From an uncultured Planctomycetota bacterium (lineage in GTDB: Bacteria; Planctomycetota; Planctomycetia; Isosphaerales; Isosphaeraceae): a DNA stretch of 64,000 nt. A program made the position numbers and the translations under genes. The stretch lies in assembly GCA_963845755.1 (NCBI GenBank), contig CAWJTV010000028.1, positions 352,001 through 416,000 on the forward strand, read 5' to 3'. Shown here in pieces: positions 46,249-64,000 of the stretch (position 1 is its first letter; each line of letters opens with the position of its first letter). Under the pieces are notes generated by a model. The model searched no databases, was not told the origin of the DNA, and saw only the letters and a list, made by a program, of their open reading frames with translations.

Positions 46249-48461
46249 ATGGCGACGATTCTGGTTGTTGACGACCGGCCGGAGAATCGCGAATTACTCG
46301 TCGAGATCCTTGGCTTGTCGGGTTACGAGTTGCGCGAGGCGGCCGACTGCGCCGAGGCCCTGATGATCACGCGGCGCGACCGCCCCGACCTGGTGATCGC
46401 AGATATCCTCACACCGAGGATGGACGGCTACGATTTCGTGCGCGAGGTGAGAGCCGACCGCACGGTTGCCTCTACCCCTGTGATCTTCTACACGGCCATC
46501 TATCGCCAAAGCGAGGCACGACTCTTGTGCAGAAATGCGGAGTGACCCACTTGCTGGCGAAGCCGGTGGTTCTGGAGGAGGTCCTGCGGACGGTAGCCGA
46601 GGTTCTGGGCACGACCCGAAATGAGGAGACAGCCCCGACCGCCGGTGAGATCGAACGCGATCATGTGCGACTGCTCAACAACGCAATGTTGGAGAAGGTC
46701 CGTGAATTGGAGATGGCCAACCATCGCCTGACACGGCTCATCGATCTCGGGAGATCACTGGCCCTGGAGGGTGATCTTTGTCGGCTGCTGGACCGATATT
46801 GTCGGTCCGGGTGCGACATGATCGGAGCGCGCTATGCCGTTCTGGGTGTGCTGGAGGAAAATGGGGAGGGGTTTGACGACCTCATGACCCACGGATTCGA
46901 CTCCGAGTCGGCCATCCGGCTGGACGGCCCATCGCCCGGCGAAGGTCTGCTGCGCCGCGTCGTGGTCGGAGGAGTGCCCTTGCGTGCCGGCGTCGGTGTC
47001 CAGGACCGTGTGCCGTACTTCTTCCCGGGTCATCCCCTGGCCGGAGCCTTCCTCGGAGTGCCCGTGGCCACGCCAGGGCATCGATACGGGGTGCTCGCAT
47101 TCATCGATAAACTGGGCAACGACGAATTCGACGCCGACGATGAAGCGTTGGCCGTAAGTCTGGCGGCGCAGCTTGCCGTCGCGTACGAAGGCACGCGCCG
47201 TCAGACCGAACTCGCGCGGGGTGCCGCCCGCCTCGAACGTTATGAAGAACAGTTGGCCATCCTGCGACGGATCGATCAGGCGATCCTTTCGGCAAATCAG
47301 CCCCGAGAGCTCGCTTCCGCCGTGGTGCGCAATCTCCGCCAGCTCCTCGGCTGCTGGTCTGTCGGAGTCTGGGTCTTCGACTGGGAGACCCGGACGGCCG
47401 AGCGCCTGGCCTCGGAGGGTGCGACCGAGCTATTGCTGCCCCCGGGTACGAAGGTGCCCCTGGACGCACTCGATGTCCGAGACCTCGAGGCCCTCAGCGC
47501 GGGACAGGACCGGATTATCGAGGACGTCTCGCTCTTGCCCGAACCGGCTCAGACGATTCGGATGCTCCAGACGGCTGGGCTCCGGTCGTACACCCGGATT
47601 CCGCTAGCCCTCGAGAGCCAGGTGATCGGCACGCTCGTGCTGAGCTCGGACCAACCCGGTTCCCTCGATGCGGAACAGCTCGGGATCGCCCACCAGGTTG
47701 CCGATCACCTGGCGATCGCCATGCGCCACGCGCTGCTATTTCACCAGGTGCGTACGGGAGGCGAGCGGCTGCGCACCCTCTCGCACCAGTTGCTCAAGGC
47801 CCAGGAGGAGGAGCGCCGCCGCATCGCCCGCGAGTTGCACGACGAGATTGGACAGTCACTGACGGCCGTGAAGATCAACCTGCAAGGGGCGACGGGCGGC
47901 AAATCGGCAAGGTCATCCTCGAGCTATCTCCGCGAGAGTGTTGGGCTGATCGACGTGGTCCTGCGGCAGGTGCGCAACCTCTCGCTCGACCTGCGGCCTT
48001 CGGTGCTGGACGATCTGGGGTTGGCGGCCTCGGTGCGATCGCACCTGGACCGTACCTCGAGGCGCGCGGGATTCGTCGGGTCATTCGCGGCCGACCCTCC
48101 GGAGATCCGCCTGTTGCCCGAGATCGAGACCGAGTGCTTCCGCGTCGTCCAGGAAGCCCTGACGAACGTGGTGCGTCATGCCGGGGCACGACGGGTGGAA
48201 GTCACCTTGTTCCGGCGCGGCGACCTCCTGGAGCTGGTCGTCCAGGACGACGGGGCGGGATTCGACGTCGCCGCGGCACGGCGGCGCGCCGCCCGCGGCG
48301 GCAGCCTCGGGCTCCTCGGCATGCAGGAGCGGGCCGCCCTGCTCGGCGGCGCGATCACCATCGAAGCCGTCCCCGGCCGCGGCACCAAGGTCCACCTGCG
48401 CATCCCCCTGGCCGACCCGGGATCGTCGAGAGGCCCTGAAGGCGAAGAGGAACCCCGATGA
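46249..48461 (+). CDS. Hybrid sensor kinase: REC + 2 GAF + HisKA_3/HATPase (NarX/UhpB type); frameshift near 46530
   Basis: ILVVDD...DLVIADI; EEERRRIARELHDEIGQSLT; FRVVQEALTNVVRHA, DDGAGF, GLLGMQERA. Confidence 0.9.
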
Positions 48462-49111
48462 CCGCCATTCGCATCCTAATCGCCGACGACCATACGCTTC
48501 TCCGCGCCGGCCTTCGAGCCCTGCTCGAAAACATGCCCGGCGTCGAGGTCGTCGCGGAAGCCGGGAACGGCCGGGAAGCTCTGGCTGCGGTCGAGGCCCA
48601 TCGGCCAAGCGTCGTGCTGACCGACATCGCGATGGCCGAGATCAACGGCCTGGAGCTGGCCGAGCGGCTGGGCCGCGACTTCCCCGAGATCAAGACGATC
48701 ATCCTTTCCATGCACAACCAAGAGGAGTATGTCTGCCGCGCCATCCAGGCCGGCGCGGTCGGATACCTCGTGAAAGACTCCGGCACGGTCGAGTTGGGCC
48801 TGGCGATCCAGGCGGTCGCCCGCGGCGAATCCTATCTGAGCCCGTCGGTCTCCAAACACGTCATCGCCGACTACCTCCGCCGCACCGGCAGCGACCCGCA
48901 CGGCCATGGCCTCCTGACACCCCGCCAACGCGAGATCCTCCGGTTCATCGCCCTCGGTCAGAGCACCAAGGCCATCGCCCGAACCCTGGGCATCAGTGTC
49001 AAAACTGTCGAAACCCATCGCGCGCAGATCATGGATCGCCTCGACATCTACGACATCCCCGGGCTGGTCCGGTACGCCATCCGCAACGGCATGGCCGACC
49101 TCAACGCTTAG
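48458..49111 (+). CDS. NarL/FixJ (LuxR-HTH) response regulator
   Basis: ILIADDH, LTDIAM, LTPRQREIL...ISVKTVETHRAQIM; ATGA overlap with kinase. Confidence 0.95.
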   Translation: MTAIRILIADDHTLLRAGLRALLENMPGVEVVAEAGNGREALAAVEAHRPSVVLTDIAMAEINGLELAERLGRDFPEIKTIILSMHNQEEYVCRAIQAGAVGYLVKDSGTVELGLAIQAVARGESYLSPSVSKHVIADYLRRTGSDPHGHGLLTPRQREILRFIALGQSTKAIARTLGISVKTVETHRAQIMDRLDIYDIPGLVRYAIRNGMADLNA

Positions 49112-50847: not shown

Positions 50848-51357
50848 CTATTTCGCTGCAGTTACCCCGCCGGGCGCGCCCACCGAATCGTCCATCGGGT
50901 GTTCCCAGCGACAGATCATGTCGTAGTCTTCCAGGCGGAAGAACCAGACCGGGTTGCGGCCGAGAAGCGTGTAGCGGACCAGCGCGGGCGACTCCGCAGG
51001 CTCAAGATGCAAGCGAACTGTGAACTGGCGCGTGTTTTCGACATCCGACTGACCGAGAATCGCGAACGAGTTGAGCCGCTGATCGGGCCGCCGCTGTTTG
51101 TCCAGGAACTTCACCGAGCTTGAATCGAAGGAAGCCGGCAACGGCGACGGGGCGTCGCGCCGTGCTCGGGGCCGATTCCAACGCCTGACGCGCCTCGGTC
51201 CAACCTGGCAGGTATCCCGGCGGAGCCGGAGGTTTGTTCCACGCGTTGCAAGCGGACGTGCTGATGGCCCCCATCGCATAGAACGCCGGGTTGCCAAGCC
51301 CGCGAATCGGCATGAGGAACATCGAGGATTCGACGTCGGCGTCGTGAGGTTCTTCAT
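50848..51357 (-). CDS. Uncharacterised lipoprotein, paralogue 1 (divergent from Cu operon); two compensating frameshifts near 51280 and 51165
   Basis: Rebuilt ...ISTSAC...EARQALESA..WRDA...FLDKQRRPDQRLNSFAILG...RQFTVRLHLEP...YTLLGRNPVWFFRLEDYDMIC. Confidence 0.65.
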   Translation of the reverse strand: MKNLTTPTSNPRCSSCRFAGLATRRSMRWGPSARPLATRGTNLRLRRDTCQVGPRRVRRWNRPRARRDAPSPLPASFDSSSVKFLDKQRRPDQRLNSFAILGQSDVENTRQFTVRLHLEPAESPALVRYTLLGRNPVWFFRLEDYDMICRWEHPMDDSVGAPGGVTAAK

Positions 51358-51556
51358 GGCGAGGAGATCCGGTCATGCGTTGCCGAGATCGGGTCTCGGA
51401 GATTTTCCGCAAGGCTCCTTGCGATTCTGACCGAACTGGGCTAGATTTGGAAGATTGAGTGCTCCAAGTGGTTCCCAATCCAAGTCTGTATCGACTCCCT
51501 TTTCGCCGGTTGGATCCGGGACTCCACGTCCCGGATCGTTGGGACGATCCATCGCA

Positions 51557-51998
51557 ATGTTGCGCTTTCACGCTCGTCGATGGTCAGGCACCGCCGCCGC
51601 GGCATGTTTGATGCTCGCGACCCTGGCCGCGCTGTTACCAGCGGAAGCGCGCGGGCTGCGATCATCCATGGGTTAAGCGTACGGTCCTATCCGATACACT
51701 GAATGACCTGAGCGTCCTCGCGCCGGTCCGTCAAGGGTCAAGTTCCGATTCCGGTTTCCCCGACGAGCCCCGGCGCCGATCTCCATGCGCGGGGGGAATG
51801 TGTTCCCGATCGCCGGACATGCCGATGACCTCCCCGGACTCCACTCCGGACCGTGTCGAGCTATGGGGCAACCTGCCTGACAGTTTCCAGCCGAAGGCCC
51901 CTGCATTGACTGCGGCATGCCCCTTTCTGGATCGCCCGCGTCCGGCTAGGACGCTTCGACCTATCGAACGTCCTCCGCGCATGATCCCCCCCTTTTGA
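51557..51998 (+). CDS. Putative secreted leader/uORF (CutF/CruR-like): signal peptide, Cys motifs, C-terminal ERPPR; frameshift near 51650
   Basis: MLRFHARRW...LAALLPAEAR(A)G|CDHPW...PCAGGMCSRSP...PIERPPRMIPPF; joining needs one indel in a (gc)n run. Confidence 0.62.
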
Positions 51999-52334
51999 TT
52001 CCTCTCATCTCGTGGACTCAGCTGGTCGGATGACCAAGGGTCGGATTCTTGACTCGCGAGGAATGACACCCTCGACGAGTCGAAAGGCCCGGCGTGTCCA
52101 TGTCGCAACATTCCTGACGTCTTTATTCGACCGAATTCTCGGGGCGTGATGCGTCCACGGATCGACGATCGGTCGGTCCCCGACCGTGCCGACGCGCACG
52201 GATCCCGCCCTTGTACCCCGGACTGGTGAGTACGTTTCGTTTGTGATTCATCTCGTATCCCTGCGAGCTGGGGGATGAGCCCGGTCTGGTCATCATCGTT
52301 TTTTTCGATTCTTCGTGCTTGAAGAGGTGCATAA

Positions 52335-53370
52335 ATGAAAAAGTTTCGAAGCGGTTTCACGTTGATCGAACTACTCGTGGTCATCGCCATCATCGCCGTC
52401 CTGATCGCCCTCTTGTTGCCCGCGGTCCAGGCGGCTCGCGAGGCCGCGCGCGGGCGCAATGCAACAACAACCTCAAGCAGATCGGGCTGGCCTGCCACAA
52501 CTACTTGAGCTCTTTCCAGTGCCTGCCCTTCGGCAAGGGTGCGAGCTACACCAATGGGGCGCAATACTACGCTCGCTGGTCCACCCACAGTCAGCTCTTG
52601 ATGTACATCGAGCAAGGGACTCTCTTCAACAGCATCAACTTCAGCCTTGCGCCATCAACGCCGGGCATGGCCGGTGATGTCGCGTTCATGCCCCCGTACA
52701 CGCAGCCGGAGAACCTGACCAGTTCATTGACCCAGGTGTCCGCGTTCCTCTGCCCGACGGACGCGACCGCGCCGACTCCCGGCTGGCCGGGCTGCAATAA
52801 CTACCTCGGCAACATGCAGACCTGGGCCTGCGATCTGGGAGATAATAACCCCTCTCAGGTTTCCCCGGGCGATGCGCCCATGGGATCTTCTACTTCTGGA
52901 GCTCGGTGGGTCTCGCCAAGATCACGGATGGCACGAGCAACACGGCCTTCTTCAGCGAAAAACTGCGAGGCAACGGGACGCGAGACGGCGACGCCCGCTC
53001 CGACTCGCTGATCACGGCGGCGCCGACTAGCCTGAATGCTACCTTCCAGACGTGCACGAGCACGCCGCTGACCGCCTTGCGGCTCACTCACGCCCAGGGC
53101 GCAAGTTGGGTCATGGGCGAAATGTGCTGCACCCAGTATAACCACGTTTCCACTCCGAACACCAAGACCTGCGCCGGGCTGGGTTTTCTCAACAGCAACA
53201 TGGCCAACATGCCGATGCAGGTTCCCCCTTCGAGCAACCATCCGGGAGGCGTGAACGTCCTCTTTGGCGACGGAGGCGCACGCTTCGTCAAGACCAGCGT
53301 TTCGCTCGTGACCTGGCGCGCCTTGGGCACGCGGGACGGGAACGAGACCATTTCCTCAGATTCGTATTGA
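52335..53370 (+). CDS. DUF1559 protein, Met/Cys-rich; frameshifts near 52450 and 52885
   Basis: [51 protein letters not shown]...|ITDGTSNT...[12 protein letters not shown]. Confidence 0.9.
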
Positions 53371-53381
53371 CGGGGGCTACC

Positions 53382-53846
53382 ATGCGAATTCTCTGGAACG
53401 AGCCTCGGCCGGCGATTCTTGCGGCTCTGTCACTGCTCCTCCTCCTGGGAACGGGGGGATGCGGGACCGGCAAGAGCGAGGGTTTACCCTCGGACGATGT
53501 AGGACGCCGGGCGCTCGAGGCGGCGCTAAACGTCTGGCGCGAGGGCGGAAAGACCGGGCCCGTGGCGGGCATGGAGCCTCCAGTCGAGGTCCACGACACG
53601 CCCTGGAGCCTGGGCGACCGCCTGTCCTCGTACGAGATCGTTGGCGAGACTAAGAGCGCCGCGGAGATGAGGTTCACCGTCCGGCTCTCGCTCGCCAAAC
53701 CGGAGCGGGTGCAGGAGGTGCAGTATTACGTACTCGGCCGCGATCCGGTGATGGTCTTTCGCGATGAAGACTACCAGCGGAATATCAACATGGTAAACGG
53801 GCCGTCGGTCACCAAACCCGCGAAGTCGGGGAAGAGACGACGATAG
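53382..53846 (+). CDS. Uncharacterised lipoprotein, paralogue 2
   Basis: Lipobox TGGC; RRALEAALNVWR...GDRLSSYEIVG...RFTVRLSLAKPE...YYVLGRDPVMVFRDEDY. Confidence 0.75.
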   Translation: MRILWNEPRPAILAALSLLLLLGTGGCGTGKSEGLPSDDVGRRALEAALNVWREGGKTGPVAGMEPPVEVHDTPWSLGDRLSSYEIVGETKSAAEMRFTVRLSLAKPERVQEVQYYVLGRDPVMVFRDEDYQRNINMVNGPSVTKPAKSGKRRR

Positions 53847-54022: not shown

Positions 54023-54551
54023 GTGAGACGGCATCCACCGACACCGCCAAGCACGAGCCTGATCATCGCAGCATTCGCGGCGATGATATGTCCGTCATGC
54101 GGCACGGTGGCTGCGCGAGAAGCCGCCGAGTTTGCTGCCCGACCCGCGGGTGGCCCGGCAAGCGGTCGAGAACGCCCTGGAGGAGTGGCGGGCCTCTCCC
54201 GATGTCGATACCACGGCCGCCGACCGATCCCTGATCTTCGTGGATCGTCAACGACGACCGGGTCAACGCTTACGGGAATTCGCAGTCCTGGGGGACTCGG
54301 TGGTCGACAACCTCCGGCGTTTCGTAGTGAGGCTGTCCCTCGCGGAACCTGAGGAATCGACGCTCGCCGCTTACTACGTTTTCGGCCGTGTGGGCAACGA
54401 CCCGATCTGGGTGTATCGTGCCGAGGAATTCGATATGATGATGAATATGGACATGGCGCCCGATGATCCGGCCCCGCCCGCGAACCCATCCAGGCCCCAG
54501 GGGTCGTCGAAACCCGAGGCGGGGCGCCACCATGAGAAGAAGGCATACTGA
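54023..54551 (+). CDS. Uncharacterised lipoprotein, paralogue 3, Met/His-rich tail; frameshift near 54103
   Basis: GTG with SD gaagggga; hydrophobic stretch + CPSC; ARQAVENALEEWR...RRPGQRLREFAVLG...RFVVRLSLAEPE...DPIWVYRAEEFDMMMNMDM...HHEKKAY. Confidence 0.72.
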
Positions 54552-54609
54552 CCGTGACGCGACGGGCGGTGGTCACCTTTCCGCACTTGCAACACGCCTG
54601 GGAAGGGGA

Positions 54610-56144
54610 ATGGTGAGGATAAGGTCGATGGCGGGCGGCTCCGTCGGACACTGGATCTGGTCGGCCTTGCGATTAGCCGAGGTCCGACTGCGCGTTCCGA
54701 TCGTGCTGGTCGTGGCCGCGGTGGTGATCGGCCGATGGGAGGTTATCCGCAACTACTGGGACCGTTTCACGCGATCCTCGACGGCCCAGAACACCTTCAA
54801 GCTCCCGATCTCGAGCGACACGGAATACTTCTGCCCGATGGATCCCGGGGTCGTGTCGCACGGTCCCGCGCGTTGCGGCGTTTGCAACATGGCGTTGGTC
54901 CGCCGCAAGCGCGGTGATGCGGTAATGCTGCCCGATGGGGTCGTCGCCCGGATGCAGCTATCGCCGTACCGGATCCAGCTCGCCGGCATCCAGACTGCTC
55001 CGTTGGGCTATCTCCCCCTGAACCGGGAGTGGTCCGCCGCGGGGTTGGTCACCCGCGAGGCCGATGACTCGGTAACCATCACGATGGATGTGCCCGGTCG
55101 TCAGGCGCCTTGGGTCGAGGAAGGTCAACGGGTCGACATCGCGTGTGCCGACCTCCCCGGCCAATGGCCGCTCACGGGCAGGATCCGATCGCTGCCGCGC
55201 CGCGTGGTTCAAGGGCGGGAATTTGCTCGTGTGACCGTCGCGATCGAGAAACCGCCGCAAACGCTCCGGGGCGGCATGATCGCGGTCGTGACATTCCGGA
55301 TCGCCATGGCCGCGCTGGATCCGTTCCGCACGATGCCGAGCGGCCCGCCCGCCCGGAAGCGCGGGGAGCCGGGCGCATCTACCTCTGTCACGATCACCCG
55401 GAGACGATCGCCCTCGAGGCGGGACGCTGCCCGATCGACGGCAAGAACCGCATGCCGCAGACGTTGGGTGAACTGGAGCGGGTGCAATGGTGGTGTCCGA
55501 TGCATCCGGAGGTCACCGCCGAGAATGCAGGCGCCGTTTGCGAACCATGCGGCGGGATGGTCTTGAAACCCAAGGTGGTCTTCTTCGCACCCAAGGGCCA
55601 GGTGCTGGCCCTGCAACAGTCGGCGGTAGTCGACACCGGCGTGCGGAAAGTGGTCTTCGTCGAGACGATGCCCGGTATGTTTGACGCAGTGGAGGTGGTC
55701 CTAGGACCGCGTTGCGGCGACTTCTACCCGGTCGTGCGTGGCATCGAGCCGGGCCAAGAGGTCGCGGTCGCCGGCGCCTTCCTGCTCGACGCCGAGACCC
55801 GGCTGAATCCTAGCTTGGCCGCCGGCTACTTCGGTGCAGGCCGTGGCGATCGTGCGGCCCACGGGGCGGCACCGGCGACCACTACGAGGCGATCTTCCCC
55901 CGCTGACGGCCCATCCAACGCATCCGGCGATCCCTTCTGGGGACTGGATCCTGCGGATCGTACCCTGGCCCAAGGTCAGTCAAACTGCCCCGTCACGGGT
56001 CGGCCGCTGGGCTCGATGGGCACTCCCAAACGTTACGTCGTTTCCGGCCGGGTGGTATTCCTTTGCTGTGCGGGGTGCGAATCCCGGCTCCTTCGGGAGC
56101 CGGCGAAATACCTGGCAAAGCTGCCCGCCCCGGGTCGCCCATGA
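54610..56144 (+). CDS. CusB-like RND periplasmic adaptor with three heavy-metal-binding modules and C-terminal YHS-like domain; frameshift near 55372
   Basis: YFCPMDP..CGVCNM; LSPYRIQLAGIQTAP; YLCHDHP..CPIDG; WWCPMHP..CEPCGGM; SAVVDTG.RKVVFV...GAFLLDAETRL; CPVTG.PLGSMG...FLCCAGC. Confidence 0.85.
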
Positions 56145-59100
56145 TTGACGCGGTCATCACGTTCTCGATCCGGCATCGGGCGGCTGTCATCGCAGCCAGC
56201 CTGCTCCTGGCCGCGCTGGGCGGCTGGGCCGTGTGGGATACTCCGGTGGACGCGATCCCGGATCTCTCGGAGAACCAGGTGATCGTCTTCACGGAGTGGA
56301 ACGGGCATGGTCCGCGCGAGATCGAGGACCAGGTGACGTATCCGCTGACTCTCGGCCTGCGCGGGATCCGGGGCGTCCGGGTCGTCCGGTCGTCGAGCGA
56401 CGTCGGCTTCTCGACGATCAGCGTCATCTTCGAAGACGCGATCCCGGTCGCCGAGGCGCGACGGCGGGTAACCGAGCGATTGGCACAGGTCCAGGGGAAG
56501 TTGCCGGCCGGGATTCTATCCGAGATCGCACCGGACTCTCCTGCAACCGGCCAGATCTTCTGGTACACGGTGGAGGGGGGCAAGCTCGACCTGGGCCGGC
56601 TTCGCGCGATCCAGGATTGGTATGTCCGCCCGCAGCTCGGCTCCGTGCCCGGCGTGGCGGACGTATCCAGCGTGGGTGGTTTCCCGATCGAGTATGAAGT
56701 GGCGCCGGACCCCGACCGGCTCCGGCTCTTCGGCGTGACGCTCCAGGAAGTCCTCGACGCCGTGTCCTCGTCGAACGCCGCGACGGGCGGCCAGGTGGTC
56801 AACAAGGGGAATGCGGAGTACGTGGTGCGCGGTGTCGGCTGGCTGGGGGCCTCTCCCAATCCCGGCGACGATTCGTTCGACCCTCGGCGGCGCGATCCGC
56901 GACCTGGAAAACGTCGTCCTCCGCGCACCGGGCGGAGGAACGATCCGGCTGGCGGACGTCGCGACGGTGGCGATCGTCCCCGGCTTCCGTCGCGGTGCCC
57001 TGGAGAAAGACGGCAGCGAGGCCGTCGGCGGCGTGATCCTGATGGCGCACGGCGAGAACCCGCTCGAGGTCACGCGCCGGATCAAGACGAAGATCCGCGA
57101 GCTCCAGATCGGCCTGCCGCGCGATGTCCGGATCGTGCCCTTCTACGACCGCACCCCGCTGATCGAAGGGGCCATCAGCACCGTCAGCGGCACCGTGCTG
57201 GAAGCAATGGTCTCGGCCTCGTTGTGCGTCCTGGTGATCTTGCTCCATGTGCGCACCTCGCTCGTCATCGTCGGCACGCTGCCACTGGCCGCGCTGTCGT
57301 CGTTCCTGATCATGGGCGTCTTGCGACGGTCGGGCGTCGTGGACATCGCGGCCAACGCCATGTCGCTGGCGGGGATCGCGATCTCGATCGGCGTGCTGGT
57401 CGACTCGTCGGTCGTGATGGCCGAGAACGTCATGCACCGGCTCAAGGAGCGCTTCGGCCCGGAACCGGTGCGCGGCGACGTTCGCGAAGTGGTCTTGCCG
57501 GCCTGCCTGGCCGTCGGTCAACCCATCGTCTTCTCGGTGGCGATCATGGTGCTGTCGTTCCTCCCCGTCTTCGCACTGGGAGGTATTGAAGGCAAGATGT
57601 TCCATCCCCTGGCCTATACCAAGACATTCGCGCTGGCATCGGTCGCGGTGCTCGCGGTGACCCTGGTCCCGGCTCTGTGTACGCTCTTCATCCGAGGCCG
57701 ACTGCGGTCGGAGCGGGAGAATCCGCTGGTCCGCGGCGTGATCGAGGTCTATCGCCCGGTCCTCTCTTTCTTGATGGATCGCCCGGCGGTGCTGGCCGGG
57801 ATTCTGGGGATAACCTTCCTCCTGGGATTCGCCCCATTGGGCAGCCGAACGATCTTCCTCGGTACGCTCGTCGTGGCGATGGTGGCGATGGCGGTCTGCG
57901 CGTCGAGCCGTTGGGGTGCGGTCCTGGGTCCCGCGTTTCTGGTACTGGTCGCACTGCTGATCGAACCAAGGATCACGCCTCTGATACGCGAATTCATGAC
58001 GCCGCTCGACGAGGGAATGGTGATGGACATGCCCATCACGGTCCCGCGGGCCTCGGTATCGGAGTCGGTCGACGACCTGAAGGCGCGCGACATGGTCTTG
58101 TGCCGGTTCCCGGAGGTGGACATGGTCGTGGGCAAGGCGGGGCGGGCCGAGACGCCGACCGACCCCGCGCCGATGGACATGATCGAGACCATGGTGAATC
58201 TCCGGCCGCGCGAGTTCTGGCCGCGCCGTAAGCTCCGCGCATCCGATGCCTCCGCCCATTGCCTTGCGGTGCTCGATGCCTTGATCGCACGCCAGGTCGT
58301 CGCGCCGCCGGTTGACGCGCAGGCGCGCCGATCCCTCATCGAAGAGGCCGTCGCGCCGGCCTTGACGCAGTTCGACGCGATGTGCCGGGAGTATGCCTAT
58401 CACCGCAATCAGGAATTGGTGCGCGAGTCGAGCGGCCTCTCTCCGACCTCGACGCACCCCTCGGATCCCGCCGAGCAGCGGCTGGTCGATCCCTGGCGCC
58501 GGCATGTGGAGAAACTCGATGACGAACTGCTAATGCGCGCCGCCCCGCTCTTCACGCGGCTGGTGATGGACCAACTCCTGGAGCGTGCGACGATCATCGA
58601 CCCGGCCGTGGCGGCGCATCACGCAAACGCGGTCCGCCTCCGTGCGGCGTCGGTCGAGGCCGCCATCTCGGCCATGACGAGGCGTCCATCCGCCATCGCT
58701 GGGCACCACCACCATTCCGGCGGATATGCCTCGATCCCCCTGCTGGAGCCGCAGCCACAACTCGACGTCGTCCAGGAGGAGCTCTCCCGCCAGTTCAGCC
58801 GATGGTTGCTCTTGTGGCAGGTGGATCGGGACGAGTTGACGCGGTTCGGCGGCGAGCTGGACAATGCCGTCCCGATGCCGGGCTGGACGAACGTCTGGAC
58901 GATGCCGATCCAGAACCGAGTCAACATGCTGACAACCGGCGTGAATTCGCCGATTGGCATCCGGGTCCTCGGACGCAACCTCGAAGACGTCGTCCGCGGC
59001 TCGGAGGAGGTTGCGCGGGTCGTGAAGGGCATTCCTGGGGCCGTTGACGTCGTGGCCGACCCGATCCGCGGCAAGCCTTACATCGAAATCCGGCTCGACC

Positions 59101-60146
59101 GCGAGCGGGCCGCCCGAGTCGGCGTTCGAGCCGGAGAGGTCAACGCGCTGATCGAGATCGCCCTGGCCGGCAAGGTCGTGGCGACGACCGTCGAAGGACG
59201 CGAACGACACTCGGTCGTCGTCCGCTATCCCCGTGCTCGTCGCGAAGACGAGGACTCGGTGCGGAACCTGCTCGTGACCGCCTACGGTGTTTCCCGCGGG
59301 CCAGCCTCGGGTTCGACCTCGACGCCTCCCGATCCGCCTTCGAGCCAGATCCCTCTCTCGGAAGTGGCCGAGATCCGCGTGGTCGAGGGGCCAGCAACAA
59401 TCAAGGGTGAAAATGGGCTGTTGCGCAATTATGTGAGGCTCAGTGCCCGCGGCCGAGATTTCGCCGACCTCGTCGAGGAGGCGCGCGCCGCCGTGGCTCG
59501 CGAGGCCCGTCTGCCCGACGGAGTTTATCTCGAGTGGACCGGACGGTTCGAGCACGAGCTCCGTGCCCGAAGGCGGCTAACCCTGGTCGTGCCCGTCGTG
59601 GTCGTCCTGATCTTCCTGATCCTCTACTGGACCTATCACGACGCGGCCGACGCCATGCTGATGATGCTGGCGGTGCCCGGCGCGATCGCAGGGGGGCTCC
59701 TCTTCCAATGGTTCCTGGGCTTGAAGCTCTCGGTGACGGTCTGGGTCGGCTACATCGCCTGCTTCGGCATGGCCACGTCGACCGGAATCATCATGCTCGT
59801 CTATCTGCGCGAGGCCGTCGAGCGCGCCGGCGGCCTGGAGCGGATCAGCCTGCAAGGGCTGCGCCAGGCGGTCCTGGATGGTGCCGTCCATCGGCTCCGG
59901 CCCAAGCTGTTGACCGAAGGCACGGTCGTCATCGGCCTGGCCCCGATGCTCTGGTCCAGCGGAGTGGCGTCCGAGATCATCCGGCCCATGGCCGCCCCCG
60001 TCCTCGGTGGCATCCTGGTCGCCGATGAAGTCATCGACCTGTTCTTGCCTATCTTGTTCTACTGGGTGCGCCGACGGCGGTGGTTGAGGCTGCATGCTCA
60101 CAGCCGGATGGTTGAACCCGACGCTCAACCCATTCCTGAGTCCTGA
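56141..60146 (+). CDS. cusA: CusA-type heavy-metal RND permease (Cu+/Ag+), with large insert; frameshift near 56884
   Basis: PVDAIPDLSENQVIVFTEW, EDQVTYPL, MSLAGIAISIGVLVD, EGKMFHPLAYTKT, KAGRAETPTDPAPMDMIET, RLRPKLLT; Met triad equivalents conserved. Confidence 0.92.
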
Positions 60147-60796: not shown

Positions 60797-63700
60797 TCAC
60801 GGCTCGTTGAGAGCCTTGGCAACCACCGTCGCGATCGTGTTGGCGTGGACATACACCGCTTCCAGCTTGCCAGCCGGACCGATCAGGAAGACCGAAGGGA
60901 TCACTTGAACGTGATAAGCATCCTGAGCGCCTCCCTCAGGCCAGTCACCCAGGAAACCTTGTGTCCATCGGAGTCCTTGCTCAGCGGCGACGTTGCGTGA
61001 TGCCTCCTTGTCGCCGTCGAGACTCAGGCTCACCATCGCGAATCGTTCGTCCGCGCCGAAGCGGTCATGAACGGCCTTGAGCTCGGGCAACTCAGCGATG
61101 CACGGCGCACACCAGCTCGCCCAGAAGATGAGCAACACGTGCTTGCCCCGATAATCCTGGAGCTTGATCCGACGACCATCGAGCGACGCGGCCTTAAACG
61201 GTGGTGCCAGCTCTCCGATCTTGAGCATCCGCCTCGGCCTGGGCCGCAGTATGCCGAGATCGAATGGCTGGCCACTCGCTGCGCCGGGGACCTCGGGAAT
61301 GCGGAACTGGCGGAACGCGTGGGCGGTTCGTTCGGGAGACCGGACGCGCATAGAGATCGGGTCAGTCGTGTAGGTCAGTGTCAATTGGTAGTCTCCGGGT
61401 GGAAGGTCCTCAACCCGAACGGTTCCGTCCGATTGGAGCGGAGCCCACTGAAGCTGGAACCAATCCCGGCGATATGCCCGTCCCTCGGGGGAGGCCCGCC
61501 ATTTTCTGGCCCACTCGATCATCGACCCATCGCGGCGGGCGAGGAGCTCTTGGGGATAGGGGATCATTGGTCGATCGCTCCCGATATTGAACGCGGAAAA
61601 CGACGTATAGTCGGCATTCGGATCGAAGCCGAGAGGCGGCGCGATCCTGGCCACCAAGGCGCGACCTGATCCACCCATCTTGACCTGGGCCACTTCTCCG
61701 GACTTGACCTCGACGAGCGTTCCGTTCGTTGATGCCTGAAGGCCTGACGCCCGCCTCTCGTATTGAAACGCAACCCGCACGTCTCCCGGGATGACGCGAT
61801 CGAAGATGAAGCGGCCTCGTGCATCGGCTTTCGTCCTGCCTGAAGCCAAGACATAGGGTATGTCGCGATTGGCGATGCGATCGGAACCATAGCGGATCTC
61901 GGCACCCGATGCCGGCTTGGCCCCCGTGCGGGCGAACCCTTCGAGACGACCCCACGGACCGGCGGTGATCGTAGAATTCTTCTCGAGGGCCGCTCGATCG
62001 ACCTCGGCATAGAACTCGGGATGGACGACGATCACGGCCCACGCTTTCCCGGCGGGGCCGGGCTCGCGGAGGCTCCGGAAGCGTCCCTGAGCATCGGTCT
62101 TCACAATGGCCTGGTCCTCCACGGGTCGAATCTGACCATCCTCGATATGAACCCTGGGCAGGGGGGATGGACCCGCAATCATCGGATAGGTCACGACGAC
62201 TTCCGCCCCTTCCAGGGGCGTGGCGTCGGGTCGGTGCACGATGCCCGTGACCAAGACGCCTTGCGGCTTCTCGGCCTTCGTCAGCTTGACGTCATATTCC
62301 ACCTGCCCCTCATCGCTCTGGAAGACGCGCGACTCGAACGGTTCGTACCCCTTCGCCTTGATCCGGAGCCGGAACTGGTTCGCCTTCTCGGTGTCGAGCG
62401 AGGCTTGCAGGTATCCCTGGTCCACAAAGCTGCGCGAATTAGCATTCCACGACACTTTGCCGGTATCGCCTTTCACGATGCCAACCTCGAGCTCAGCCTT
62501 ATCGATGGGATTGTCGGTAACGGCGTCGCGGACATGACCGCTGATCGACAGCTCGCGCCTGAGCGTCAGCACGATCTCACCGGAATCGGGCGTGGCCCTC
62601 TGCTGGAAGACATCCGAATAACCGGTGCGACTGGCATCGACGAGAACGGGATCCGCCGGAGCATCCTCCCACCGAAACCGGCCGTCGGACCTGGACTTGA
62701 GGAACACCCTCGGAAATCGGCGGCCGCGCCAGGTGTCGATGTGGACGAAAGCGTCGGGGATCGGTCGATTCTGCGTATCCACCACCCGGCCCGCGAGGAC
62801 ATGCGGAGGTCCCAGTGTCACGACGACCGGCTCGACCCGGTCCGTGGCTGCAACCGGCTTCATCTCCGGCGCGTGGCCCCGGGCCTTGACTCGAAGCATC
62901 ATCCGTTTCGGACGAACGTGCGGAAATCGGAACTGCCCCTGAGCATCGGTGATCGACAAGGGCGCATCGTCGTAGGGGCCCGGGTCGCTCGCTTCAAAGC
63001 AGATGACCTCGGCGCCCGCGATCGGCTTGCCCGCCTGGTCCGAGACTGTACCGGCGATCGCGACCCCCCGGATCATGACCTGGCGATCCGTGAAATCGCG
63101 CAACGCCTGCATCGGCTGTTCGTCCGGCTTGGGTGGATTCGATGGCCTCGGCTGGCCGTGCTTCCGCGGATAGGAGTCCCCATCCGCGACATAATCCGGG
63201 TGCGAGAGGAAGAGGTAGGCGAACGTCATGTTGCGGAAGGAGCGGCCACGCCACCGGCCTTGCTGGTCGGTCTGAGCGTCCACCATCCAGGCCAGCTCAT
63301 GTTTCTCCTTCTTCTCGCCGAGGTAGCCCGAGATCCGAACCTTCACTCCCGCCATCGGATGTCCCTGTTCATCAACGACCGTGCCACCCAGTGTTTGCTC
63401 GCTGGGCAATAACTCGACCGTGAACTCCCCGGGGATCTTCGCAAATCGCGGATTGTTCTGGGCAAATGAGTGGCGCTGCTGGACGTAGCCCTCGGCCCAG
63501 ACGTCGAGATTCAGCGTGTCCTGAAACGAGTCGTGGGACAGATTGATGCGGATCCGGCCGTCGCGGTCCGTTTTCCACTCCGGATGCACGAGATCCCGCG
63601 TGGAACGGACCGTCGCCGAGGCCAGCGGCTTGCCAGTGTCCTTGCCAACGACGATGACCTCGATCGCCCCTTGGGGTGCGTTGACCACGGTCTTCGCCTT

Positions 63701-64000
63701 CTCATCCGGCGTGGCCTGAGTTGTCTCCGGCGGCACAATGGCCTTCGTCGCCGCGCGGGCCAGCTCGATCGAGCCGAGCAACCCGGTGATGGCCAGGAGA
63801 ACCGCGGCGACCGCCAGTCTCTCCGGCCACGGCAGCAGGCATCGCGACGATCCCCGGCTCTCCTCGATCCACGCCAGCCGCCGGCCGAGCTTCGTGATGT
63901 GCGCCATTGCCAGTCCAAGACCCGGTTCGGGTCGCCGGACCAATCCCGAGGCGACCGCGATCAATGACGCTCGGTACGCAGAAGCCCCTCCCATTGCAAA
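60797..64000 (-). CDS. BlaR1/M56-type protein with carboxypeptidase-regulatory-like repeats and C-terminal TlpA redoxin; starts beyond window end
   Basis: AYRASLIAVA...LAMAH.TKLGRRLAWI (end of M56); repeated G.V.D..G.PIAGA.V...TDAQGRF; LLIFWASWCAPC. Confidence 0.82.
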   Translation of the reverse strand, partial: FAMGGASAYRASLIAVASGLVRRPEPGLGLAMAHITKLGRRLAWIEESRGSSRCLLPWPERLAVAAVLLAITGLLGSIELARAATKAIVPPETTQATPDEKAKTVVNAPQGAIEVIVVGKDTGKPLASATVRSTRDLVHPEWKTDRDGRIRINLSHDSFQDTLNLDVWAEGYVQQRHSFAQNNPRFAKIPGEFTVELLPSEQTLGGTVVDEQGHPMAGVKVRISGYLGEKKEKHELAWMVDAQTDQQGRWRGRSFRNMTFAYLFLSHPDYVADGDSYPRKHGQPRPSNPPKPDEQPMQALRDFTDRQVMIRGVAIAGTVSDQAGKPIAGAEVICFEASDPGPYDDAPLSITDAQGQFRFPHVRPKRMMLRVKARGHAPEMKPVAATDRVEPVVVTLGPPHVLAGRVVDTQNRPIPDAFVHIDTWRGRRFPRVFLKSRSDGRFRWEDAPADPVLVDASRTGYSDVFQQRATPDSGEIVLTLRRELSISGHVRDAVTDNPIDKAELEVGIVKGDTGKVSWNANSRSFVDQGYLQASLDTEKANQFRLRIKAKGYEPFESRVFQSDEGQVEYDVKLTKAEKPQGVLVTGIVHRPDATPLEGAEVVVTYPMIAGPSPLPRVHIEDGQIRPVEDQAIVKTDAQGRFRSLREPGPAGKAWAVIVVHPEFYAEVDRAALEKNSTITAGPWGRLEGFARTGAKPASGAEIRYGSDRIANRDIPYVLASGRTKADARGRFIFDRVIPGDVRVAFQYERRASGLQASTNGTLVEVKSGEVAQVKMGGSGRALVARIAPPLGFDPNADYTSFSAFNIGSDRPMIPYPQELLARRDGSMIEWARKWRASPEGRAYRRDWFQLQWAPLQSDGTVRVEDLPPGDYQLTLTYTTDPISMRVRSPERTAHAFRQFRIPEVPGAASGQPFDLGILRPRPRRMLKIGELAPPFKAASLDGRRIKLQDYRGKHVLLIFWASWCAPCIAELPELKAVHDRFGADERFAMVSLSLDGDKEASRNVAAEQGLRWTQGFLGDWPEGGAQDAYHVQVIPSVFLIGPAGKLEAVYVHANTIATVVAKALNEP

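Follow-up and report, generated by a model that had tools for sequence, protein, structure and literature searches.

To our knowledge, CutF and CruR are the only metal-sensing upstream open reading frames (uORFs) to have been studied. CutF of Rhodobacter capsulatus is described as a small Sec-exported ORF at the head of a copper-detoxification operon, with an additional Cys near the mature N-terminus and a CxxxC motif at a fixed distance before a C-terminal PPP motif (PMC9973294; bioRxiv 10.1101/2025.02.05.636593); this Pro motif is reported not to be a strong staller on its own (PMC9973294). CruR (Bp2923) of Bordetella pertussis, a DUF2946 (PF11162) protein of ~145 residues, stands first in an operon of copper uptake genes, ahead of a long intergenic region, and its stall is relieved by copper (PMC9426467). 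According to the same paper, the spacing between Cys and PP in the CruR family is fixed at ~45 residues, the addition of five residues impairs regulation, and the Rho site maps to a C>G stretch within the ORF itself. Arrest by CruR has been shown (PMC12992588), and RAPP peptides have been reported to insert their Arg into the peptidyl-transferase pocket (PMC10951233). The source data of PMC12992588 also hold 112 cases of RAPP uORFs before DUF1559 genes, a 6.5-fold enrichment, and the link between uORFs and DUF1559 is therefore already in print as a bioinformatic entry.

The window, by which we mean the whole 64,000-nt stretch of planctomycete DNA analysed here, carries a leader ORF ahead of a DUF1559 gene and a copper-type efflux system (Table 1). 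We conclude that this leader is a real gene and that its family is a new, large, lineage-restricted variant of exported Cys/Pro-Pro regulatory leaders. A sequence-only reading of the locus had proposed a CutF/CruR-like sensor with a different Cys spacing. The fixed distance from Cys to PP, as in CruR, supports that proposal in part, but the leader does not belong to DUF2946 and a RAPP-type motif occurs in none of the 167 members that reach the C-terminal motif.

Table 1. Features of the leader locus, with positions counted from the first nucleotide of the window.
Feature	Position	Strand	Remarks
Divergent gene, paralogue of the operon's two small lipoprotein-like genes	50848..51357	-	Start probably frameshifted; tblastn similarity to the ORFs at 53367 and 54132
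Predicted housekeeping sigma70-type promoter, TTGCGA-N17-TAGATT	51419..51447	+	~110 nt before the leader ATG; conserved in G001
Leader ORF	51557..51998	+	147 codons in intact relatives; split here by a 2-nt gap
Predicted Sec/SPI signal peptide	51557..51653	+	Basic n-region, hydrophobic core, AxA site
Frame break in GC dinucleotide run	51645..51653	+	Likely assembly error; 2-nt gap relative to G001
Invariant Cys, position +2 after the predicted cleavage site	51657..51665	+	His two residues later in 90/149
Invariant C-x4-C pair	51786..51803	+	Family consensus PCxGxxCS
C>G stretch, candidate Rho-loading region (weak)	51832..52026	+	Over the 3' end of the ORF; 78-nt windows, C 29-31 against G 16-21
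Conserved Trp	51864..51866	+	37 residues before the last Pro in 116/136 members with Trp there
Candidate arrest motif ERPPR	51966..51980	+	Five residues before the stop
Intergenic region	51999..52334	+	336 nt; no promoter-like site, intrinsic terminator or unusual structure (z = -0.5)
DUF1559 prepilin-like gene	52335..53370	+	First behind the leader; Pfam PF07596; two frameshifts here
Small lipoprotein-like gene	53382..53846	+	Constant companion of DUF1559 genes linked to a leader; no known family
Second paralogous small gene	54132..54551	+	N-terminus probably frameshifted
CusB-like periplasmic adaptor with heavy-metal-binding domains	54463..56144	+	Pfam HMBD, HlyD_D23; TIGR00999; frameshifted
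CusA-type RND pump	56063..60146	+	Three Met of the Cu(I)/Ag(I) site kept; frameshifted

With CutF the leader shares its predicted export route, its place at the head of a copper-detoxification operon, the fixed distance between Cys and Pro motifs and the extra Cys near the mature N-terminus. It differs in having C-x4-C instead of CxxxC and xRPPR or xHPPR instead of PPP; its Cys pair is separated from the four-residue motif by 54 residues rather than the ~45 quoted for CutF (PMC9973294). It also occurs in many copies per genome and its first target is DUF1559. The generic filters given for CutF-like genes would admit it, with 147 residues (≤150), an AxA signal, PP five residues before the stop (≤15) and a 336-nt gap (≤1000), whereas the CxxxC seed rule would pass over its C-x4-C pair (PMC9973294). 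Most CutF-like genes are followed by a gap of <100 nt; the 336-nt gap here shows no sign of a stem-loop over the downstream ribosome-binding site (z -0.5; mean z +0.35 around the start in 45 of 97 leader-DUF1559 gaps). The main text of PMC9973294 mentions neither planctomycetes nor DUF1559; its File S1 lists could include members.

CruR is matched in length, in first place within the operon, in the long intergenic region, in the invariant Cys-to-PP spacing, in a C>G stretch that covers the ORF's 3' end, and in having little predicted structure (PMC9426467). Unlike CruR, the leader has neither CxxC nor RAPP and its spacer is nine residues longer (54 against 45); moreover, as CruR heads uptake genes and the leader an efflux pump, the predicted sign of regulation is opposite. 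PF11162 matched none of 15 members at E<=1, none of 88 at E<=10 and nothing anywhere in the source genome, and a profile-profile comparison with nine planctomycete DUF2946 members (a small template) gave a probability of 0.7%. Among 61 genomes of the bacterial family to which the window belongs, 10 carry true DUF2946 leaders with RAPP or RGPP as separate genes, and five of the nine examined precede DUF1559 genes. The uORF catalogue of PMC12992588 likewise holds small exported ORFs ending in Pro-Pro before DUF1559 genes; it was, however, built on RAPP and RGPP and would not have collected this family. Nor does the motif fall within the RAPP-like (RQH) class as given in PMC10987492 (R/Q/H-[AG]-P-P or RAGP-type). 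By language-model features the nearest named Atlas clusters were DUF2946, then CzcI (PF28244; 0.89) and DUF6660 (PF20365; 0.88), values which, being all <0.9 and based on few shared features, are a lead only. DUF6660 matched none of 88 members in the Pfam scan, and PF28244 may postdate the Pfam version scanned. CzcI also lies upstream of an RND metal pump but, as described in PMC9973294, lacks a C-terminal Pro motif.

A profile of 15 members (A1) had matches in 89 of the 121 genomes searched from the window's own bacterial family, which is most likely Isosphaeraceae, with 349 matches in total and up to 13 in one genome; the leader is thus far commoner in these hosts than DUF2946. With a deeper profile of 88 rows (A2), 68 of the 151 genomes searched from the class gave a match, several other families included. 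In a sample of 201 genomes across the phylum, six had a match, all from the window's class, and none was found outside that class. A 50%-identity protein library yielded 2,325 matches at E<=0.001. Named members of the family are 'hypothetical protein' entries of Singulisphaera and Isosphaeraceae, which is the basis for the assignment of the hosts to Isosphaeraceae. No family in Pfam or NCBIfam scans matched the leader, and a word-index protein search returned one fragment only. The published literature searched contains no description of the family, although supplementary lists of the CutF and EMBO J surveys could contain members. The source genome holds six copies by the A1 profile, four of them in one island on C41, and a probable distant extra copy on C5. 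For counting, 182 loci were drawn from 30 genomes, 24 of them chosen for many copies; 178 are distinct, 167 reach the C-terminal motif and 154 are full length. Owing to the relatedness of these genomes and the selection for high copy number, counts and p-values are overstated.

Two small ORFs joined by one indel in a GC run had been proposed to give a product of ~147 residues, and relatives confirm this reconstruction. The frame from the ATG at 51557 encodes a signal-peptide-like N-terminus, is then thrown out of register and reaches a stop at 51676; the frame at 51558 supplies GCDHPW (51654), CAGGMC and ERPPR before the stop at 51998. A single intact ORF of 147 residues is encoded in the same-genus genome G001 (L002) and in G015 (L003). 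The G001 leader is 64-65% identical to that of the window over the mature part. In the DNA alignment of the two, the window lacks two nucleotides within the GC run near 51650, and this is the sole indel of the ORF. Values of dN/dS against G001 of 0.59 and 0.32 for the two pieces of the leader indicate purifying selection on both. Automated annotation, which had been expected to miss the leader, does miss it in the window's assembly, but intact relatives have it annotated as 'hypothetical protein'.

Judged by comparison, and not by reads, the break near 51650 is likely an assembly error. All 104 loci from fragmented or >=95% complete assemblies carry an intact copy, against 43 intact and 22 broken among the 65 from long-contig assemblies (<=100 contigs and <95% completeness), the group to which the window's assembly belongs; one weak match, L154, was excluded. 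The short-read contigs available for this strain extend over 51483-51633 and 51701-51851 and none spans the break; four soil read runs contain small shares of the window region. The DUF1559, cusB and cusA genes of the window are also frameshifted, with DUF1559 aligning to G001 in three frames, and across the assembly 6 of 95 DUF1559 starts lose frame near a similar GC run (manual reading of nine flagged cases). Five of the six scored leader copies in the source genome are broken, three of them near the signal-cleavage site. Programmed frameshifting was considered for this reason, and was rejected because all 104 loci from the better assemblies are intact.

In the A2 alignment a Cys after an AxA-type site, the C-x4-C pair and one Pro are invariant, with the Trp and PPR nearly so; this conservation of the Cys motifs and PPR supports the sequence-only reading. 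An AxA-type cleavage site is present in 87 of 88 aligned members and a lipobox in five, and a lipoprotein signal was rejected on this count. Of 152 members, 149 have the last Pro 57-61 residues after the last Cys; the distance is 58 or 59 for 132 of these and 58 for the window leader. A profile search favours members with the spacing of its seed; the distance from first to second Cys, which varies from 30 to 54 in the same 152 members, provides an internal control. The motif was found in 140 of the best 150 library matches with the same Cys-Pro spacing (58 or 59 in 125), and members from other families of the class show 57-62. The gap fraction is 0.002 in the Cys-to-Pro segment and 0.048 upstream, while sequence conservation is equally low in both. 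Extra Cys beyond the trio occur in 82 of 152 members. The mature chain is Pro/Ser-rich and has no confident fold: the AlphaFold model (mean pLDDT 69, pTM 0.29) contains the signal helix and one three-residue helix only.

At the C-terminus, the 167 members carry FHPP (89), ERPP (36), DRPP (19) or rarer variants, with Arg next in 138 and PP within 16 residues of the stop in 164. Neither RAPP, RGPP nor an Arg two residues before Pro-Pro occurs in any of them; the basic residue of the motif directly precedes PP. All 16 codon pairs are used to write PP, and the constraint therefore acts on the peptide. CCT makes up 27% of the motif Pro codons, against 12% of other leader Pro codons and 11% in genomic PP pairs, a weak signal inflated by kinship; CCU and CCC have been reported as slow Pro codons (PMC12856214). 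Observed/expected ratios in the proteome are 0.4 for RAPP and RGPP, 1.13 for DRPP, 1.09 for FHPP, 1.74 for xRPPR and 0.62 for ERPP. With DRPP, FHPP and xRPPR undepleted and ERPP mildly so, the short motif alone is therefore not an avoided strong staller. The missing RAPP-type Arg and the proteome ratios tell against strong intrinsic arrest; a conditional pause at the motif is possible, since the Pro motif of CutF is likewise not a strong staller alone. A bare search of the source genome for the C-terminal motif is noisy (31 matches against 12-27 for control motifs). On the plus strand of C43 (G000, ~114.6-115.2 kb), a different Cys-rich exported ORF, frameshifted and not matching the family, ends in LDRPPR before a DUF1559 gene, which suggests that the motif is modular.

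Of 152 leaders, 97 are preceded at a narrowly defined distance by a sigma70-like promoter pattern, whereas shuffled sequence gave 12.6 and the reverse strand 16. This count was made in the set from which the pattern was derived; in 44 further loci, independent apart from two overlaps, it was found in 20 against 5.1 expected. A stricter promoter scan of the window missed the predicted site. The gap between leader and DUF1559 gene ranges from 169 to 765 nt in 97 cases (median 336) and contains a promoter-like site in seven of them, where 7.9 would arise by chance. With a promoter-like site before the leader and none in the gap, leader and target therefore likely share one transcript. Around the downstream start the mean z was +0.35 (45 of 97 gaps), giving no sign of a stem-loop over the ribosome-binding site, and an intrinsic terminator or riboswitch-like structure in the gap found no support, the z-scores being from the same 45. 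The C>G excess peaks around the PP codons, with a synonymous C/G odds ratio of 1.6 relative to DUF1559 coding sequence and 1.4 relative to the 5' part of the leader; this modest signal is partly due to Pro/Ser codons and is also kin-inflated. Rho is encoded in the source genome.

The leader had been placed directly upstream of a copper operon. It does head the unit, but the adjacent gene, 336 nt away, is DUF1559, with cusB and cusA following after it and two small lipoprotein-like genes. The three small lipoprotein-like paralogues of the locus match no Pfam family, and the divergent one holds the same divergent position in relatives. No gene for an outer-membrane factor (CusC) was seen in the operon; the small lipoprotein-like genes or DUF1559 may stand in for it. 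Elsewhere in the window, a GAF/HisKA_3 kinase and a LuxR-type regulator lie upstream of the leader (46527-49111), and a large carboxypeptidase-like-repeat/redoxin gene lies downstream on the opposite strand (60797-63994).

Across the family the next same-strand gene is DUF1559 behind 98 of 167 leaders (base rate 0.36%), and it comes from a small recurring set in 157, a set built from these same neighbours, so that an outside base rate exists for the DUF1559 count only. The other first targets are FG-GAP/UnbV (22), CMD/AhpD-like (18), deiodinase-like redoxin (6), APC permease (4), small lipoprotein (3), ECF sigma (3), SsuA-like (2), multiheme cytochrome (1) and others (10). The idea that the family precedes most DUF1559 genes was discarded, the motif being upstream of just 4 of 113 in the source genome. 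On the leader tree there are 41 changes of target class against 57 +/- 1.4 when shuffled; as neighbours co-duplicate anyway, we draw no support from this figure.

The link to copper begins with the pump, whose best solved-structure match is CusA (E 2e-151), followed by ZneA at 2e-93. The Met residues at chain positions 580, 630 and 679 of 3ne5_A, which we take to be the M573/M623/M672 triad, are conserved in it. Closest to CusA and with the three-Met site kept, the predicted product has the marks of a CusA/SilA-type Cu(I)/Ag(I) RND pump. Six relatives keep the order leader-DUF1559-lipoprotein-cusB, and cusA is visible in five. A cusB query, itself taken from a leader-linked operon, gave 76 matches or 71 loci after merging. 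Scoring of the upstream DNA of 60 loci placed a leader on the same strand in 20 and in divergent orientation in 18; 16 had none and six were too short. Four of ten 'none' loci inspected by eye hold a degenerate divergent member. Over all 71 the figures are 29 same-strand, 22 divergent, 13 none and seven uninformative, and a family member thus lies within ~5.5 kb upstream in 51 of 64 informative loci. The second cusBA of the source genome, on C43, has no such leader. In the 22 divergent cases the leader cannot control the pump in cis, and in 13 there is no leader; the divergent cases therefore point to the DUF1559-lipoprotein unit, not the pump, as the constant target.

In other families, two members head YtkA-like genes, one of them together with a Cys-rich ferredoxin-like membrane protein; we presume copper-delivery roles for these genes. 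Most members, however, head genes with no known copper role. Many targets are thiol or selenol redox proteins (CxxC or Cys/Sec), which makes copper less sure as the signal, and we rate the chances that it is so as even. PF02583 found no CsoR-type repressor in the source genome, which is 88% complete, and this negative carries no weight. The original proposal, a copper arrest peptide controlling a DUF1559/RND operon, is supported in part by comparison: the single ORF, the conserved motifs, the fixed Cys-PP spacing, the first place in a unit ending in a Met-triad CusA and the conserved linkage to cusBA. Against it, the leader points away from cusBA in 22 of the 51 linked cases.

The leader ORF, its family, motifs, fixed spacing and gene order are directly established. 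From these we consider it likely that the leader is a cis-acting, export-coupled ribosome-stalling device that gates read-through. The nascent chain would probably be exported through Sec while the ribosome pauses at Pro-Pro. The 58 residues from last Cys to last Pro would then span the exit tunnel and translocon and bring the Cys pair just into the periplasm; ~30 tunnel and 17 membrane residues are quoted for CutF (PMC9973294), and by analogy we infer that the pair sits just outside the translocon when the ribosome is at Pro-Pro. Given such a pause, Cu(I) or Ag(I) bound to the Cys trio, plus His, would with rather better than even likelihood block disulfide formation or folding. The chain would then not be pulled free and the pause would lengthen, as proposed for CutF. 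It is similarly somewhat favoured that the stalled ribosome would cover the C-rich stretch and keep Rho from ending the transcript, as in CruR; we prefer such a CruR-like output to melting of a ribosome-binding-site hairpin because 336 nt separate the leader from the next start codon, which lacks a promoter of its own. In this device a CutF-like input would thus be joined to a CruR-like output, with sensor sequence and arrest motif both new. That it serves as a sensor letting transcription run into DUF1559-lipoprotein-cusBA when copper is present seems to us an evenly balanced proposition.

The same cis stalling leader might instead respond to the oxidation state of the periplasm (disulfide formation, peroxide or other thiol-reactive stress) or to export capacity, the copper pump being one appended member of a thiol-stress regulon. 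We regard this as a less likely but real possibility. Its frequent targets include exported CxxC AhpD/CMD-like and deiodinase-like thioredoxin-fold proteins; one of the latter, from a genome that encodes tRNA-Sec, carries an in-frame TGA where the Cys would be; islands of up to eight leaders in 27 kb head such redox genes, cusBA is often divergent or unlinked, and the CutF model itself couples copper to disulfide formation (bioRxiv 2025.02.05.636593). An odd number of invariant Cys, three and often near His, would nevertheless suit a metal site better than paired disulfides, and the tight linkage to the Cu/Ag-type pump and to YtkA-like genes would require a separate explanation.

Were the leader instead a small secreted protein acting in trans, as a metal or thiol buffer or a partner of DUF1559 and the lipoprotein, PPR would serve as a signal in sorting or proteolysis and the first place in the unit would reflect co-expression only. 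The cleavable signal peptide with conserved Cys, the undepleted motif tetrapeptides and the gap without structure or terminator would all fit. We nonetheless judge it improbable: each unit has its own copy, even where several lie within one island, the poorly conserved linker has a fixed length, a confident fold is absent, a long promoter-free gap follows the ORF and synonymous codons near the motif are biased. Least probable is a functional family in which the break at 51650 is genuine and this copy, or the whole operon, a recent pseudogene. The broken copies elsewhere in the source genome, the frameshifted DUF1559, cusB and cusA genes and the lack of a spanning read would agree with decay; yet breaks are confined to the long-contig, <95% complete assemblies, similar GC-run breaks affect unrelated DUF1559 genes across the assembly, and all motifs and the promoter are intact here.

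The large surveys took RAPP/RGPP or DUF2946 as their basis, and the present family, though far commoner in its hosts, has neither. If the leader stalls, it would represent a new arrest motif and the use of one nascent-peptide sensor as a multi-copy regulon device. Tentatively, with somewhat less than even confidence, we suggest that Planctomycetia possess a whole periplasmic copper/thiol-stress regulon in which each unit has a private export-coupled arrest-peptide copy, up to a dozen per genome, with an undescribed xHPPR/xRPPR motif usable by other Cys-rich leaders. Its members, put forward just as guardedly, would be DUF1559 with its lipoprotein, the AhpD- and deiodinase-like Cys/Sec enzymes, UnbV/UnbU-like proteins, the multiheme cytochrome and the Cu/Ag pump. 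Were this true, one branch of the large DUF1559 family would for the first time have an assigned signal and function. Through the leaders, the inducer of one branch of planctomycete DUF1559 genes can be tested directly, and copper- or thiol-stress roles are predicted for several unnamed proteins.

Several arrangements of leader-headed units were also noted. Islands of tandem units occur on C41 (G000, ~612-631 kb; L035, L036) and at L260-L261, L262-L267 and L279, with eight leaders within 27 kb in G015; their genes encode DUF1559, small lipoprotein, long AhpD/CMD-like, deiodinase-like, FG-GAP/UnbV, APC permease and SsuA-type ABC proteins. In an EF-hand/deiodinase-like gene of such a unit (L036:972-2282, minus strand; G000 C41 ~618-619 kb), and also in L152, an in-frame TGA stands where a paralogue has the active Cys. 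The genome with the TGA-bearing gene has tRNA-Sec, and the product is a probable selenoprotein. At L037:9520-14108 (G000 C14), L265, L277 and L278, a leader-headed UnbV/ASPIC gene is followed by an unassigned gene, which we have labelled UnbU-like on our own assumption, and by a short gene of CMD-like type; the unit in L037 showed no large polyketide synthase beside it. At L274 and L275, leaders without a typical target lie ~1.6-1.8 kb before a ribonucleotide reductase gene, the target possibly having been lost. Outside the window's own family but within the class, the gene behind the leader often encodes a protein of ~1000 residues and is followed by an FG-GAP gene (L276, L282, L292, L294-L296, L298, L307, L309 and G000 C5 ~593-596 kb); the copy scanned contains a multiheme cytochrome c554 domain.
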